Positions 42,001 through 48,000 of a stretch of DNA of 64,000 nt are shown here, piece by piece. Position 1 is the stretch's first letter; each line of letters begins with the position of its first letter. The position numbers are program-made. The stretch lies in NCBI GenBank assembly GCA_963677495.2, contig CAXXOU010000004.1, positions 192,001-256,000 on the forward strand, written 5' to 3'. Source of the stretch: Candidatus Cloacimonadales bacterium. Its GTDB lineage: Bacteria; Cloacimonadota; Cloacimonadia; Cloacimonadales; JAFGVF01.

Positions 42001-45000
42001 TCACTGCACCAACTTTGCGTCTTGTGCAGGTTGAGCGTTCGGAAGCTAAATAAGCCATTTTCATAAAGTATTGCTGCCAATAAGGACGTTGTTCTGACAT
42101 CATGTACCCCTTTTTCGTGATGTGATAAGCATAACATCATTTATAACTTGTCAAGTGGCAATTCAAACAAATTCTGGAATCATGAATAAGATACAGAAAC
42201 CAAAACTTGATTTACATGGCACCATAGAACTTGAAGGCTCAAAGTCAATCCTGCAAAGACTGATTCTCATATCGCTTTTCTTAAAAGATGAACTAAGAGT
42301 TACTAACTGGAGTAGCTCCAATGATGTAACTGAGATGTCTAAAGCAGTTGGAGTTGAGTCCACAGAGAAAGATGTACTCCTCTCAGTTTCATGTTTACAG
42401 GATACTATACACATTGATGAGTCAGCCACAGCGTTGAGATTCTTAGTTACTTATGCATCACTCAATGAAGGAAAGAAAACATCAATCACAATGGGGAAGA
42501 GGTTAGCAAAAAGACCACATGATATCCTCTTTGATTTACTGAGAAAGCTTGGAGCTGCTATTGATGTTATAGATTGTAGAATTGATATAGTAGGTTCTAA
42601 ACCTACTTTGAAATCAATAGATGTTCCTGCTAATGTTAGCAGTCAGTACATATCTGCTTTATTACTCTGTGCTCCATTATTCGAAAACGGTCTCACATTC
42701 AAACTCATCCCTCCGATTGTATCAAAAAACTATATCGAACTTACAATTGCCTTAATGACAACTTTTGGTATCACAGTCAGTTATGAAGAGAATGTGATTA
42801 CTATCCCACCAAAGAGTAATTATAAAGATATCAATAACTTCACTTGTGAAGCAGACCTTTCCTCAGCCATATACCCCCTTTGTGTCGGACTTTTCTCAGA
42901 AAAGGGAATTGGAGTCACTCCTATCTCTAATCACACGAAACAACCCGATTTTGTCTTCTGGAAGCTACTTTCAGATGCCGGTGCTGATATAAAACTTCAT
43001 TATAGAGAAGATAGTGAGGAAGCAGTGCTCATTTCTAAACTTACAGATTATGATGGGTTTACCTTTGATGCAATGAGAGCCCCGGACCTCGTACCTGCAT
43101 TGGCTCTACTCGCTTTGTTCGCTGATACAGAGTCTATGATTACGAATGTAGATTATCTTAAGAATAAAGAATCAAATAGAGTTGTAGGCATTGTAAATAA
43201 CTTCAAACTCTTAGGTGCTGATATAGAATATAATGATAGCACTTTGACTATTCAACCTCTATCTGATAACCCAAATAGCGTAACCTTAGATACACAAAAC
43301 GACCATCGATTAGCAATGGTATTTTATATCATTACTCTTATGTTTCCACAAGTTAGCATAAATGAAAGAGATTCTATAGGGAAGTCATACCCACACTTTA
43401 TAGATGATATTGCAAATTTAAAGTAATTAGAAAAAGGCAACTCAAAATTGAGTTGCCTTTTCAAATTAAATAGTTTCGATTACAAAGTAATAATTGTACC
43501 TGTCTTACCTTCTAAAGCTTCGGTAAGGTACTCATGAGAAGTGATGATAACTCTTTTACCACCTTTCTCAAGGTAATCAACTGCTGCTAAAATCTTTGGT
43601 CCCATACTACCTTTTGGGAAGTGACCTTCAGCGTGATAGCGTTTTGCATCTTCAGTGTTAAGAGTAGATAGCTCTTCCATCTCAGGCTTACCCCAATTGA
43701 TAGCAACTTTCTCAACACCGGTAAGGATGATAAGTGTATCAGCTTCGATCTGGTTCGCAAGAAGAGCAGAAGCAAAGTCTTTATCGATAACTGCATCCAC
43801 ACCTTCAAGGGTTTGGTTGTTTTCAACATATACAGGAATACCACCACCGCCACAAGAGATAACGATAGTACCGTTTTCCATGAGAGCTTGAATTGCTTTA
43901 GCAGGAATAATATCTTTTGGTTTTGGTGAAGGAACAACCTGACGCCATCCACGGCCTGCATCTTCAGTCATTGACCAGCCATATGCTTCTTGAAGATCTT
44001 TTGCTTGTTCTTCAGTATAGAAAGGACCTACCGGCTTAGATGGATTGCTCATACTTGGATCGTTCTTATCCACAACAATCTGTGTAAGGATTACTGCAAC
44101 CTCAGGTTCAAGACCTGCATTCTTAAGAATATTCTGTAAGCTTTGGTCAATCATATAACCCATTGTACCTTCGGTAGCAGCATTAAGAACGCCTAAAGGA
44201 AGTGGTGCAACACCACGGTCGATACCTGCGTTTTGTTGAATAAGCATGTTGCCAACTTGAGGTCCATTACCATGAGAGATAGCAATCTGGTAACCCTCTT
44301 TAATAAGTTTAGCGATACCATTAAGACTTTCACGAGTATTAGCGAACTGCTCTGTGATAGTTCCTTTTTGTCCGGCTTGGATAATAGCGTTTCCGCCGAG
44401 AGCCAAAACGATTTTCTTATTCATATTATTCTCCTGATACTTTTATTTCTGAAAAGCAAAGTAGGAGACGGTTAAATCTCCTACTTTTAAATATCTATAA
44501 GCTCTACTTATCTGTTAGTAGCCTCTTTCTTTGAGTAACTCAGCAAGAGTTGGTTTTCCAATCTCCTGAAGATCATAACTAACACGAGTAGATGGCTGAT
44601 CGATTTTCACAATTCTTCTCAGATCGATTGGAGTACCGATTACAACTGCATCGCACTCAGTCTTTCTGATTGTTTCTTCGAGATCTTTAATCTGCTGTTC
44701 ACCATATCCCATTGCTGGAAGAAGAACACCAACTTCAGGATATTTCTCAAATGTTTCCTGAATCTCACCAACAGCCCAAGGGCGAGGATCAACGAGGTCT
44801 GCAGCACCGCATTTCTCAGCAGCTACAACACCTGCACCATAAGCCATTTCGCCATGTGTGAGAGTTGGACCATCTTCTACAACAAGCACATTCTTGCCAA
44901 GTAATAATTCAGGATCTTCTACTGTAAGAGGAGAAGCAGCTTCTACAATCTTAGCTGTAGGGTTGATAGCACGGCAGTTTTCGCGTACTTCCTGAATATC

Positions 45001-48000
45001 ATCAAGGTCAGCTGAGTCGATTTTATTGATAACAATAATATCAGCTAAACGAACGTTTGTTTCGCCAGGATAGTAACTGATTTCATGACCAGGTCTATGT
45101 GGGTCAACAACAACAATGTTAACTTCTTGATCTGAAGTATAGAATGGTGTGTCATTATTACCACCGTCCCAGATGATTACATCAGCTTCTTTCTCAGCTT
45201 CACGCACGATTGCTTCATAGTCAACACCGGCATAAATGATGCTTCCCATTGCAATGTGTGGTTCATACTCTTCCATCTCTTCGATAGTACATTTGTGCTT
45301 TGCAAGGTCTTCAATTACTTCAAAGCGTTGAACTTTCTGAGCTACAAGGTCACCATAAGGCATTGGATGACGGATAGAAACAACCTTTTTACCTACGCTC
45401 TTAAGATAGCGAACAACGGCTCTAGTTGTCTGACTCTTTCCGCAACCTGTTCTAGCTGCACAAATAGTGATAAGTGGTTTAGTTGTTTTAACGCGACCAT
45501 GTTTTTCACCCATAAGCATGAAGTCAGCACCGGCTGCATTAACCATAGCAGCATTATGCATAACTCTTTCGTAAGGGAGATCACTATATGCAAGTACAAC
45601 GATATCTATATCATGTTCCTTAATAAGTTCTGGAACTTTTGCTTCAGGCAGAATTGGAATACCATTCGGATAAAGTTTTCCCGCTAAAGCAGCAGGATAT
45701 TTTTTGTCATCTATGCCCGGAATCTGAGTTGCAGTGAATGCGATTACATTATACTCCTCATTATCTCTAAAGTAATTGTTGAAATTGTGGAAATCTCTTC
45801 CCGCAGCGCCCATAATGATAACTTTCTTTTTCATGGAAACTCCTTTCTAAATGGATTTCCACCAAAAGTGGGGTTCAAAGATAATCAGTCAAGAAAAATT
45901 TAGGTTATTTCTTGGCAATATCTTTTTTGACTTTTTTTGGGGTCTCCTATCAGGCTCTTTATAGCTTATAATGCAAGAGTAGCCTAATTGATTGGGATTG
46001 AAATATGTACGTGATTTATGCTTAAGTGAGTATGCTACAGGATAGATGCAATAAAGGTATGTATTGGACCAATTAAATCAGCTCATCTTTTACCCAAAAC
46101 AAACTCATTAGCAATTTTTTTTATCAACTTCTCTTCAACTATTTAATCAAAAGACATCTTTCAACCTGTTCTTTATATAACATCAATCTCTCACTGCTCC
46201 CTCTATGCTCAGCATTAATTCCTGTGAGACACTTGGGTAACCCTTGGGAAACACTTGGGTAATCCTTGGGTTAATTACCAAGGGATAACCAATTTATTAT
46301 TAAGTTAGAATTGATTAGCAAGCAGTTGTTAATGCTGAGGGAAGAGAGAGGGATAAGGGATAATTTGAGGTGCAAGCCCTTTAGTGTTTTTGATACCAGC
46401 CCTTTGGAAATATAACAAAGACATGTAGCCCTATAGGGGCGAAAGACAACCAACAACAATTATCGTAACATTCCATCTAAAATCATCTTACCCCCATTCA
46501 ATAAAGATATGACAAAGATTATATATTTATCCACAACTTGTGACTAACTTACTGCTTTGAGTAAGTGAGTAGTAAGAGAGTAGTAAGTGTGAAGTAAGAG
46601 AGAAGTAAGAATTGAATGGGGGTAATCGTAGGAACATAAAATGCTATTTCTCCCGATTTTCCAATGACCAACAAAAGCATAATGTTTATATCCATCCCTT
46701 ATCCAACTTATAAGATTCCTATATGTTTATATAGGTTTCATATAAGAGACATATAGGGAACTTTTAGGGATTATGTGTCCGTTGCTCCTGTGCCTGACGG
46801 GAGATTGGAGGAATAAAATCATTTAAAATTGTGTTGGGATTATATGATGAAGATGTTCGTTAGGGTGACCCCTTTAGGATCAGGTTTGTTTTTATTCCCG
46901 TCCATAAGCTAAAGCCTATGGCTATTATTGGGTTATCCTTGTAGGATAAATGGGCTGCAATGCCCTTAGATAGAACCCTAATTGGGTTCACCAATGTTAG
47001 CCACAGGTTTCAACCTGTGGAATATGATAAAACAATAATTCAATCCTAAATGGATTGCCCATTTATCCCTTGCTGATGAAAATCAATAGTGTCATTAAGG
47101 TATAATACAATTTCTTTCTTGCCATCTCGAAACCATATCTTAATATTTGCCTTAACAGATAATAATACTCAATGCAGGAGATTTAAGGGTGTTTATTTAT
47201 GAGACTTAAAAGATTAGATTTGAATGAAAATGATGTAGAGGATTTTGGATTAAGTACGATCAGAAGTAAAGAACTAGGACATGTGATTGCATTAGTAGGT
47301 GAAAATGGTGCTGGAAAATCTAGATATTTGAATGCTATCGAAAAACAAATTAAAAATATAAAAACTCCTATATCTTTGATTGATAAACTGTTTAAGCTTA
47401 ATAGGAGTTATGCTAGAGATGCTGATAACTACCAAAAAGCAATCAATACAATAGGTAGAGAAGAAATGGAAATTAGGCTTTCATATTTACGTTCTGAAGA
47501 ATATGAACACAATATAAATCATCAATCAGAAATTGATGAGATTGAGAGAATTCTGGCAGACAATTATGATTTGCCAACTTTTAGCAATACAGAAGAAGCT
47601 GAAACTTTCGAATCTAATACTAAGCAAGTAGTAGTTGACTTTGTTAAAAAGAGATTAGTTGTTATTAAGCATGAGGATATTGTCAATCTACATCAGCAAA
47701 TGAAAAACCCAAAAGTAGGACTTAACGATATTTTAGACAAAGCCAATATTAAAAAGGATTTCAATAAGTTGTTTGAGTCTGTTCTAGAAGATGGATTGAC
47801 ATTTTTTCAAGGCTTAGGCAATGACCTTGCAATGCATCAAATTTTGGAGAGAGAAGACCCCAGAAAAAGTGAGTTCAAAAAGAAAGAAGCTCAATGTGAT
47901 AAACTAATTGGACTGACTAGAGAATTTTTGGATAAGGATTTATCATGGGAGAGAGAAACTTTGAATCATGAACCTAGTCATGAGGGATACAAGCTTTCTG

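Follow-up and report, generated by a model that had tools for sequence, protein, structure and literature searches.

Carbamoyl phosphate in a lineage nearly devoid of its synthetase: an arcE–arcC locus in Cloacimonadales and a probable arginine route to pyrimidines

The window analysed is a stretch of 64,000 nucleotides from the genome of a Candidatus Cloacimonadales bacterium (99.46% complete, four contigs). It contains a two-gene unit on the minus strand, with the following features:

44515..45834, minus strand: arcE, arginine synthetase family (P0001), 439 aa, P-loop RTGCGKSQT at residues 128-136
43480..44424, minus strand: arcC, carbamate kinase (P0002), 314 aa
44425..44514, minus strand: 90 bp gap between arcE and arcC, holding the ribosome-binding site of arcC and a predicted hairpin near 44458-44487 (from sequence and fold)
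43430..43462, no strand assigned: hairpin flanked by T-runs on either side, lying between the convergent aroA and arcC (fold of a 59-nt stretch, -20.9 kcal/mol)
45835..45892, minus strand: arcE leader, with a -35-like TTGAC at 45888-45892 and an AGGAG ribosome-binding site

A preliminary description of this DNA had presented arcE and a carbamate kinase gene as an operon at 43480..45834, and both ORFs are indeed found there as a two-gene unit. In Cloacimonadales, arcC adjoins arcE in 27 of 30 loci, versus none of 18 loci in other orders, and arcE is present as a single copy in this genome. The hairpin beyond arcC likely acts as a bidirectional terminator; it is absent from the output of a consensus promoter/terminator scan, which returned nothing above chance. 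The TTGAC element precedes arcE in all nine loci listed, the leader contains no PyrR-type loop, and no Rfam family exceeded its threshold around arcE.

Over 434 aa, P0001 shares 63% identity (E 0.0) with the Thermococcus protein L095, through which the comparison with the T. kodakarensis protein TK2200 was made; L095 was taken as the TK2200 orthologue on the grounds that both of its ends match peptides encoded by the TK2200 primers. An exact scan with the forward primer gave no match, and the degenerate reverse-primer pattern matches at five Thermococcales loci and at six unrelated ones. By this proxy, P0001 falls within the definition of ArcE used in Fig. S10 of PMC11032458 (more than 380 aa, E <1e-100 to TK2200). 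The GCGKSQT motif is invariant across the ArcE alignment. The predicted structure (pLDDT 76.7) retrieves cyclic 2,3-diphosphoglycerate (cDPG) synthetase as its top Foldseek match, followed by LpxK (4ehy); a poor single-sequence fold (pLDDT 44.6) was left unused. Although cDPG synthetase (PDB 8oru, 9sxb) is the nearest solved fold, and the label that many databases give these proteins, P0001 differs from it, with only 16% identity and with 31 bits to 9sxb, and the 2024 paper used that enzyme as an outgroup to ArcE (PMC11032458). The earlier assignment of this gene (g01606) to ArcE at 63% identity is thus confirmed by the match to L095, the P-loop, the LpxK-like core and the arcC neighbour, and membership of P0001 in the arginine synthetase family is supported at the level of sequence. 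This would correct the annotation of ArcE proteins, which are now filed as GTPases or cDPG synthases. The arcC product, the only carbamate kinase found in the genome by phmmer and family search, scores 402 bits in TIGR00746 (cut-off 358). Its best PDB match (1e19, E 1.7e-98) is the 'anabolic CK' of Pyrococcus furiosus/abyssi, a proposed source of carbamoyl phosphate (CP) in organisms that lack carbamoyl-phosphate synthetase (CPS) (PMC6022934).

De novo pyrimidine genes are intact in this genome, a conclusion supported by family searches that recover pyrB-pyrC-pyrK-pyrD, pyrE and pyrF; pyrB, pyrK, pyrD, pyrE and pyrF exceed their NCBIfam cut-offs and pyrC that of TIGR00857. The G205 copies of pyrE and pyrF were too distant to serve as queries. 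OTC is likewise present (PRK04284, 595 bits versus a cut-off of 515), so that the preliminary description was right on both counts. Among the 133 high-quality genomes of the order, PyrB occurs in 127. The genome also encodes PyrR, and its sole PyrR-type loop lies before pyrB, as does a loop in all 19 genomes examined. Against RF00515 it scores 30.7 bits (gathering score 54, E 0.019), with a close match in the binding loop but not in the downstream attenuator.

No CarA was found by family search in this genome, and no CarB exceeded its cut-off, the best score being 49 of 1027 bits. Five weak CarB matches were rejected: they are Ddl, PurD and three ATP-grasp proteins that fall below every cut-off. 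Of the 203 order genomes, 2 have a CarA match, and CarB was detected in 3 of the 232 genomes of the phylum; the controls of these searches were positive in 14 of 14 cases. The claim that CarAB is missing here and throughout Cloacimonadales therefore stands, and the loss extends to the whole phylum; the companion claim that CarA is limited to a bin with 4% contamination does not survive the full-order count, as the 96% complete G168 has CarA too. It is very improbable that a CPS is present and was missed, either in an assembly gap or as a small divergent ATP-grasp form. Such a form might be sought in the three unassigned ATP-grasp proteins, which are about 400 aa long and weakly match CarB-type models, and carB does occur in three bins. 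However, the trio lies far under the cut-offs for CPS and CPS-like proteins, amid genes that modify sugars or amino acids, and the CarB of G168, used as a query, finds nothing in this genome better than E 0.01. The CarB oligomerisation domain was not found in 200 of 203 order genomes, several of which are in one contig, and all CarA and CarB matches sit on contigs of 2.5-4.5 kb, the three carB contigs being only 59-72% identical to one another. A lineage-wide loss of CarAB is supported by these counts.

To our knowledge, CPS is regarded as the universal entry into pyrimidine synthesis, and Thermococcus is so far the only case in which CP has been shown to come from arginine through ArcE. The near-complete absence of CPS from this phylum, an uncultured group common in anaerobic digesters, extends CPS-less pyrimidine synthesis to bacteria, and no mention of CPS loss came up in the literature searched on arginine, carbamate kinase or carbamoyl phosphate in Cloacimonadota. 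The phylum probably lost CPS early, with a still-regulated de novo pathway fed from a catabolic CP pool. It is also conceivable that pyrimidine salvage or citrulline uptake dominates, with ArcE a pure energy enzyme and a minor de novo flux. A pyrimidine-nucleoside phosphorylase is encoded at window positions 50351-51655, PyrR is a bifunctional PyrR/UPRTase, T. kodakarensis could do without arcE when a complex medium provided citrulline (PMC13260591), and three of five closed genomes searched in another family (f14) show no third or fourth transcarbamylase of the PyrB-sized type. Yet the pyr genes are intact and, where tested, under purifying selection, the conservation of PyrB and of its PyrR-type loop described above points the same way, and a CP source is needed even for occasional de novo flux, which makes this alternative quite unlikely.

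Three predicted catabolic sources of CP were identified in this genome: ArcE with OTC, an arginine deiminase (ADI)-like enzyme with OTC, and a YgeW purine cluster. The ADI-like gene and the purine genes lie outside the window, on contig C4:

C4:456734-458002: ADI-like gene, PF02274 208 bits, PDB ADIs as best matches
C4 874-880 kb: ygeW in an xdh cluster, 671 versus 453 bits
C4 1291-1302 kb: ssnA and ygeY (both over cut-offs), xdh, and hydantoinase-like and PreA/YgfK-like genes

The ADI-like protein is under both NCBIfam cut-offs for ADI (TIGR01078, 256 versus 489 bits; PRK01388, 269 versus 414 bits), which weakens its part in an arginine route. It carries the catalytic motifs FxRD, EGGD, HLD and RCMS. 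FTRD and HLD are described as ADI motifs in PMC9007349. ADI occurs in 10 of 11 family relatives and in 31 of 203 order genomes, in line with the earlier picture of a gene frequent in the family and rare in the order. The co-occurrence of ArcE and ADI, put forward earlier as an exception to mutual exclusion, also holds (19 of 133 high-quality genomes), but its novelty does not, since the 2024 paper already names exceptions of this kind in Desulfosarcina, Halolamina and Korarchaeum (PMC11032458). ADI is associated with the absence of ArcE by Fisher test (p 0.01), a value made unreliable by the non-independence of kin, and the three ArcE-less genomes that are at least 99% complete all carry ADI. 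In many bacteria, citrulline is a source of CP through a catabolic OTC (PMC6245113), and the ADI-like gene here and in ArcE-less relatives is shared with the ArcA-ArcB-ArcC deiminase pathway; the ADI-like gene, however, is not part of an arc operon, and carbamate kinase, OTC or ArcE lies within 1.5 kb in none of 30 ADI-like loci.

ArcE is found in 178 of 203 order genomes and in 124 of the 133 of high quality, OTC in 119 of the latter, and either ArcE or ADI in 129; OTC together with ArcE or ADI is present in 112 of the 127 high-quality genomes that have PyrB. For this genome and for those 112, arginine is supported as the most likely origin of CP. In the proposed scheme, arginine would be converted to citrulline by ArcE with a gain of ATP (Arg + ADP + Pi to citrulline + NH3 + ATP), or by the ADI-like enzyme, and OTC phosphorolysis would yield ornithine and CP. 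PyrB would draw from this pool what pyrimidine synthesis needs, the single carbamate kinase would make ATP from the remainder, and YgeW would provide a second inlet. We put the probability that arginine catabolism feeds the CP pool for pyrimidines here, with YgeW as the second inlet, at about 0.55; the genes, their integrity and their distribution are observed, and the activities, directions and fluxes are inferred. Weighing against it, OTC phosphorolysis is unfavourable (K ~5e-6; PMC9007349), and the PyrR-type loop precedes none of arcE, arcC, OTC, ADI and ygeW. The arginine would be imported or derived from peptides because argG is absent: no copy was found in this genome and no full-length one in 73 sampled genomes. 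Matches in 45 of the 73 (11 over the cut-off) were rejected, the best having E 7.7e-10 and most covering the first 60-75 of 162 positions; the top match, the one that was read, lies in a 516-aa GuaA-like ORF. The predicted requirement for arginine or peptides could be useful for cultivating Cloacimonadota.

The YgeW cluster is a rival inlet as well as a second one, as anaerobic purine breakdown of the 2,8-dioxopurine type could provide this genome with the bulk of its CP. YgeW and carbamate kinase make ATP from the YgeW substrate in that pathway (bioRxiv 2025.04.24.650524), with which this genome shares ygeW, ssnA, ygeY, xdh and hydantoinase-like genes, and ygeW is present in 88 of 133 high-quality genomes. 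The genes differ from the known pathway with YgeW and YqeA in occupying two loci without a carbamate kinase of their own. Neither YgfK nor the hydantoinase reaches its cut-off, and ygeX could not be identified in this genome, ThrC-like PLP enzymes lying at its expected place. External purines would also be needed, and nucleic-acid salvage would presumably then supply pyrimidines too. YgeW is missing from 42 of the 127 high-quality PyrB-positive genomes and so is not the order-wide source; as the main source in this genome it is unlikely.

The preliminary description goes too far in holding that, across the order, arginine must be the source of CP as it is in Thermococcus. The ArcE-ArcB-ArcC system of T. 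kodakarensis (PMC11032458, PMC13260591) shares with this genome an ArcE orthologue, OTC, carbamate kinase and complete pyr genes, and both lack CPS and argG. Pyrimidine prototrophy of T. kodakarensis depends on arcE and arcB but not on arcC (PMC13260591). A CP supply of this type would have ArcE as its sole arginine-to-citrulline enzyme and OTC as its sole catabolic transcarbamylase, whereas the bacterial genome also encodes an ADI-like enzyme together with a YgeW purine cluster, so that ArcE is not the sole entry. No HypF exceeded its cut-off in this genome, and hence there is no [NiFe] sink, unlike in T. kodakarensis. [quoted passage not shown] Pyrimidines are thus possible in the order without the arginine route, which is its common state and not a rule.

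All 12 of these relatives instead carry a citrulline hydrolase, CtlX or RocB, neither of which occurs in this genome. In searches that covered 71 genomes for CtlX and 59 for RocB, one or the other often occupies the site of OTC (within three genera, 15 of the 20 genomes without OTC, against 0 of the 33 that have it). The loss of OTC is real by synteny at four of five sites inspected (G040, G041, G064 and G075; flanking order differs at G061), and this, with the mutual exclusion of OTC and CtlX/RocB, rules out assembly gaps. CtlX, in G075 and others, scores 441 versus 334 bits in NF046062, and its FPNN and HTN motifs are present in six of six proteins checked. The gene inside the OTC of G064 is an M20 hydrolase and not a transposase; proteins of this type, in G064 and others, are putatively RocB, judging by the M20 family, the M20 metal motifs and a homologue with 97% identity whose source calls it 'arginine utilization protein RocB'. 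RocB of Bacillus subtilis yields ornithine and carbamate (PMC10404663), and the same is proposed for CtlX (PMC9007349), itself a putative assignment. As neither gives CP, these relatives must fill the CP pool by other means.

Carbamate kinase was found in 126 of the 133 high-quality genomes, among them all 12 that have PyrB but no OTC. It seems to be the only recognised CP source left in the 8 that also lack YgeW, in a survey that left out oxamate transcarbamylase (AllFGH) and agmatine deiminase. A transcarbamylase family search finds PyrB alone in 7 of the 8, G085 having been outside the search. In OTC-less pairs, pyrB (dN/dS 0.018-0.05) and arcC (0.07-0.13) are under purifying selection, and the PyrR-type loop is kept. 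In these relatives, carbamate kinase running backwards (carbamate and ATP to CP and ADP) is the best remaining explanation, and a probable one. It is an even bet that, in a phylum that makes pyrimidines without CPS, OTC was displaced in one family at least four times (by two CtlX and two RocB types), giving a route in which ArcE, with one ATP gained, a citrulline hydrolase, with an irreversible pull towards ornithine and carbamate, and carbamate kinase in reverse would supply CP to PyrB. Neither a pairing of ArcE with a citrullinase nor a displacement of OTC in place was found in the literature consulted. The joint presence of ArcE and ArcC is no proof of an intact ArcE-OTC-carbamate kinase pathway. 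If the route is real, it is new, and its bearers are natural organisms with carbamate kinase as the physiological CP synthetase. Whether the enzyme ever acts so in vivo is a 25-year-old question, for which the OTC-less relatives offer a clean test and, for bacteria, a gene-content argument to set beside the 'anabolic CK' of Pyrococcus.

In the present genome, backward carbamate kinase as the main CP source is doubtful; its carbamate would be formed from ammonia and bicarbonate in the surroundings or be released when citrulline is hydrolysed. OTC is intact, and both citrulline hydrolases are absent; six high-quality PyrB-positive genomes (91-98% complete, fragmented) give no carbamate kinase match. 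The 2026 paper rejected this direction in vivo for T. kodakarensis, whose carbamate kinase was unable to replace arcB (PMC13260591). The Pyrococcus enzyme is cited in that paper as complementing the loss of carAB in E. coli at 20-50 mM ammonium bicarbonate. With an equilibrium K of 0.04 for carbamate kinase, an equilibrium sketch gives 8-400 uM CP at 0.1-1 mM carbamate, at which OTC would be unable to run catabolically.

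Both ORFs that the preliminary description had reported in the window are confirmed, on the minus strand of the Candidatus Cloacimonadales genome under study (G000; 3.41 Mb, 4 contigs, 99.46% complete, 0.48% contaminated), in which the window spans C4:192001-256000:

44515-45834, minus strand, ORF, arcE, 439 aa (P0001)
43480-44424, minus strand, ORF, arcC, carbamate kinase, 314 aa

The two are spaced by 90 bp and followed by a hairpin common to the convergent aroA. The 314-aa ORF exceeds the carbamate kinase cut-off (402 versus 358 bits), and is the sole copy in the genome. Between the genes is a strong hairpin (44458-44487), which could adjust the level of arcC or protect the arcE transcript. 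Within 6 kb of the pair lie genes for a dCMP deaminase (41621-42103, minus) and a pyrimidine-nucleoside phosphorylase (50351-51655, plus), and a 670-aa AAA ATPase fused with a methyltransferase-like domain, together with the 247-aa ORF after it, which matches no family (47199-49979, plus), resembles a defence island insert.

Apart from a weak CobW/HypB match, no family was detected above cut-off in P0001; those of its homologues that bear a name come from Cloacimonadota and are filed as GTPase or cDPG synthase. Comparison with the characterised enzyme, TK2200 of Thermococcus kodakarensis, was made via the TK2200 primers given in the supplement of PMC11032458. A scan with the forward primer gave zero matches; a degenerate pattern of the reverse primer led to five Thermococcales loci, one of which (L095) has at its two ends the peptides encoded by the two primers and served as a proxy for TK2200. 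P0001 is 63% identical to this proxy over 434 aa. An alignment-based model of P0001 (pLDDT 76.7) matches the cDPG synthetase fold best, at 16% identity, and LpxK second, the same relatives that PMC11032458 names for TK2200. In a FastTree phylogeny the Cloacimonadota ArcE rows (48/48) group in a single clade with support 0.996, apart from the 14 distant representatives and 4 Thermococcales included. On sequence grounds, the G000 protein is a member of the Thermococcus ArcE family. Four relatives are longer, at 651-766 aa (P0127, P0128, P0134 and P0139), and may be fused to additional domains.

Carbamoyl-phosphate synthetase (CPS) is missing from G000, as the preliminary description had held for this genome and its order. 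CarA is absent, as is CarB: its five matches score at most 49 bits, where the cut-off is 1027, and the CarB of another bin, used as query, found nothing better than E 0.01. Of the five, one is Ddl, one is PurD, and the other three belong to ATP-grasp proteins below all cut-offs. Relatives were surveyed in 203 genomes from the order and 232 from the phylum, of which 133 and 151 are high-quality (HQ; ≥90% complete, ≤5% contaminated). CarA occurs in 2/203 (one HQ) and the CarB oligomerisation domain in 3/232, on contigs of 2.5, 3.0 and 4.5 kb whose mutual identity is 59-72%; these are likely contamination, and a hidden CPS in G000 is very improbable. Neither argG nor, above cut-off, HypF was found in G000, and none of 73 genomes sampled has a full-length argG.

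G000 encodes three transcarbamylases: ornithine transcarbamylase (OTC; 595 versus 515 bits), YgeW (671 versus 453 bits), which sits in an xdh cluster, and PyrB, in a pyrB-pyrC-pyrK-pyrD operon. An arginine deiminase (ADI)-like gene keeps the catalytic motifs and misses both NCBIfam ADI cut-offs; CtlX and RocB are absent. So G000 appears to have three catabolic inlets to carbamoyl phosphate (CP) and one carbamate kinase. Directly downstream of the ADI-like gene is an archaeal-type Glu-tRNA(Gln) amidotransferase pair, gatE-gatD (L045:11075-14433, contig C4), here in a bacterium and over its NCBIfam cut-offs at 492 versus 456 and 508 versus 324 bits. In a second purine cluster, ssnA and ygeY exceed their cut-offs and are accompanied by xdh and by genes resembling those for hydantoinase, PreA/YgfK and ThrC. 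At the place expected for ygeX, the purine clusters carry PLP enzymes, CysK-like (486 aa, L044:11736-13193) and ThrC-like (383 aa, L241:8370-9518); a 1002-aa ORF at L241:3801-6806 has no NCBIfam match.

The genes pyrE, pyrF and pyrR lie elsewhere in G000; pyrE (TIGR01367; L238:1117-1902, contig C2) is extended at its N-terminus by about 75 residues, or carries a small fused domain. Three patterns for the PyrR-type loop found a single such loop in G000, upstream of pyrB; the leader scores 30.7 bits with the Rfam model, whose gathering score is 54. The putative loop (L043:8929-8957) is conserved in the pyrB leaders of 18 other genomes. Family f3 has it overlapping the ribosome-binding site of pyrB, which suggests control at translation; its position in G000 and G103 is about 100 nt upstream, ahead of a short ATG. 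In L160 (G103), L158 (G065) and L169 (G076), though not in G000 or G108, a distance of 5-10 kb separates OTC from the pyrB operon.

Across the order, ArcE is found in 178/203 genomes (124/133 HQ), PyrB in 179/203 (127/133 HQ) and ADI in 31/203 (24/133 HQ); outside the order ArcE is found in 20/29. Phylum-wide, OTC is present in 195/232, YgeW in 121/232 and carbamate kinase in 205/232. The arcC gene adjoins arcE in 27/30 loci of the order versus 0/18 of other orders. When the per-gene scans of HQ genomes are merged into one table, ArcE or ADI occurs in 129/133; of the nine lacking ArcE, five have ADI, including all three that are ≥99% complete. Of the HQ PyrB-positive genomes, 112/127 combine ArcE or ADI with OTC. 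The survey thus supports arginine, by either enzyme, as the common CP source in the order. Co-occurrence of ArcE and ADI, given in the preliminary description as an exception to mutual exclusion, is real (19/133 HQ); bacterial ArcE and such exceptions already appear in PMC11032458.

For G000, we put at roughly 55% a route in which arginine would be converted to citrulline by ArcE, with ATP gain, or by the ADI-like enzyme, and citrulline to CP by OTC; PyrB would tap this pool and carbamate kinase spend the remainder. The genes and distributions are observed, and all fluxes are extrapolated from T. kodakarensis, in which arcE and arcB are required and arcC is not (PMC13260591). This pathway would work like that of Thermococcus, which has ArcE as sole entry enzyme, whereas G000 also has YgeW and the ADI-like enzyme. 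Carbamate kinase running backwards is a less likely CP source in G000; E. coli complementation by a Pyrococcus kinase is cited in PMC13260591. YgeW as source is unlikely, and pyrimidine salvage or citrulline uptake is less likely still.

OTC is conserved order-wide in the Thermococcus arrangement, whereas some Cloacimonadales have lost it. Among 68 HQ f3 genomes, OTC is missing in 13, ArcE in 2, PyrB in 1 and carbamate kinase in 2; outside f3, OTC is missing in 1/65. A broad transcarbamylase search of nine of these OTC-less genomes found PyrB alone in seven and PyrB with YgeW in two. The f3 OTC site is divergent from a TolC cluster. There, flanking genes abut, with no OTC, in G040 and G041; in G064 OTC's first 28 codons precede a 559-aa M20 hydrolase (L175:794-2611); in G061 the neighbours differ; and in G075 the site holds a CtlX gene (441 versus 334 bits; L179:12021-12947), its start codon in register with that of OTC behind the same ribosome-binding site. 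CtlX was also noted in this slot at loci L186-L195; it lies beside TolC in six g13 genomes, and is split in two in G088. The M20 hydrolase is probably RocB-like, its closest homologue (97% identical) being named RocB by its source and the next (about 80%) largely from Tissierella.

CtlX was found in 8/71 and RocB in 7/59 genomes searched. In genera g11-g13 (53 genomes, all searched for both), one or the other occurs in 15/20 OTC-less versus 0/33 OTC-bearing genomes; the five without either are 64-94% complete. Among HQ PyrB-positive OTC-less genomes, 12/12 have a citrulline hydrolase (7 CtlX, 5 RocB). CtlX and RocB each come in two types, 48% apart for CtlX and 56% for RocB; their placement on a tree of PyrB+PyrC from 19 genomes points to four or more separate acquisitions. 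RocB splits citrulline into ornithine and carbamate (PMC10404663), and the same cleavage by CtlX is proposed, unproven, in PMC9007349; neither reaction yields CP.

The claim that CP must come from arginine throughout the order fails on these 12 genomes, eight of which also lack YgeW; ArcE and carbamate kinase are present in 8/8. In the OTC-less loci examined, pyrB and pyrC are full-length and stop-free (13/13), as are pyrK and pyrD in the 11 whose contig extends that far, and the PyrR-type loop is retained over the pyrB ribosome-binding site. Between pairs of OTC-less genomes, dN/dS ranges over 0.018-0.05 (pyrB) and 0.07-0.13 (arcC), some pairs spanning pre-loss time. Backward carbamate kinase would be the only recognised CP source left in OTC-less, YgeW-less relatives, AllFGH lying outside the sources searched. 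In a rough equilibrium sketch, with a K of 5e-6 for OTC (PMC9007349) and of 0.04 for carbamate kinase, the kinase would hold 8-400 uM CP at 0.1-1 mM carbamate, where OTC would be unable to run catabolically, so that a hydrolase would be favoured as the pull on ArcE.

What appears new is the phylum-wide CPS loss and the displacement of OTC. Within the reachable literature on carbamoyl phosphate, carbamate kinase and arginine, which excludes most subscription papers, no statement of CPS loss in Cloacimonadota was found; PMC12590816 and PMC13082233 gave no term matches, PMC13260591 deals with Thermococcales only, and the supplement text of PMC11032458, figure labels of Figs S10-S11 apart, does not name Cloacimonadota. 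Six single-contig genomes of family f14, in another order (G203-G208, loci L180-L185; 1.5-1.6 Mb), lack ArcE and CarB and have OTC, YgeW and carbamate kinase. A pyrBI operon is observed in G205, and in G203 the neighbours of agmatine deiminase are an antiporter gene and one that resembles putrescine carbamoyltransferase.
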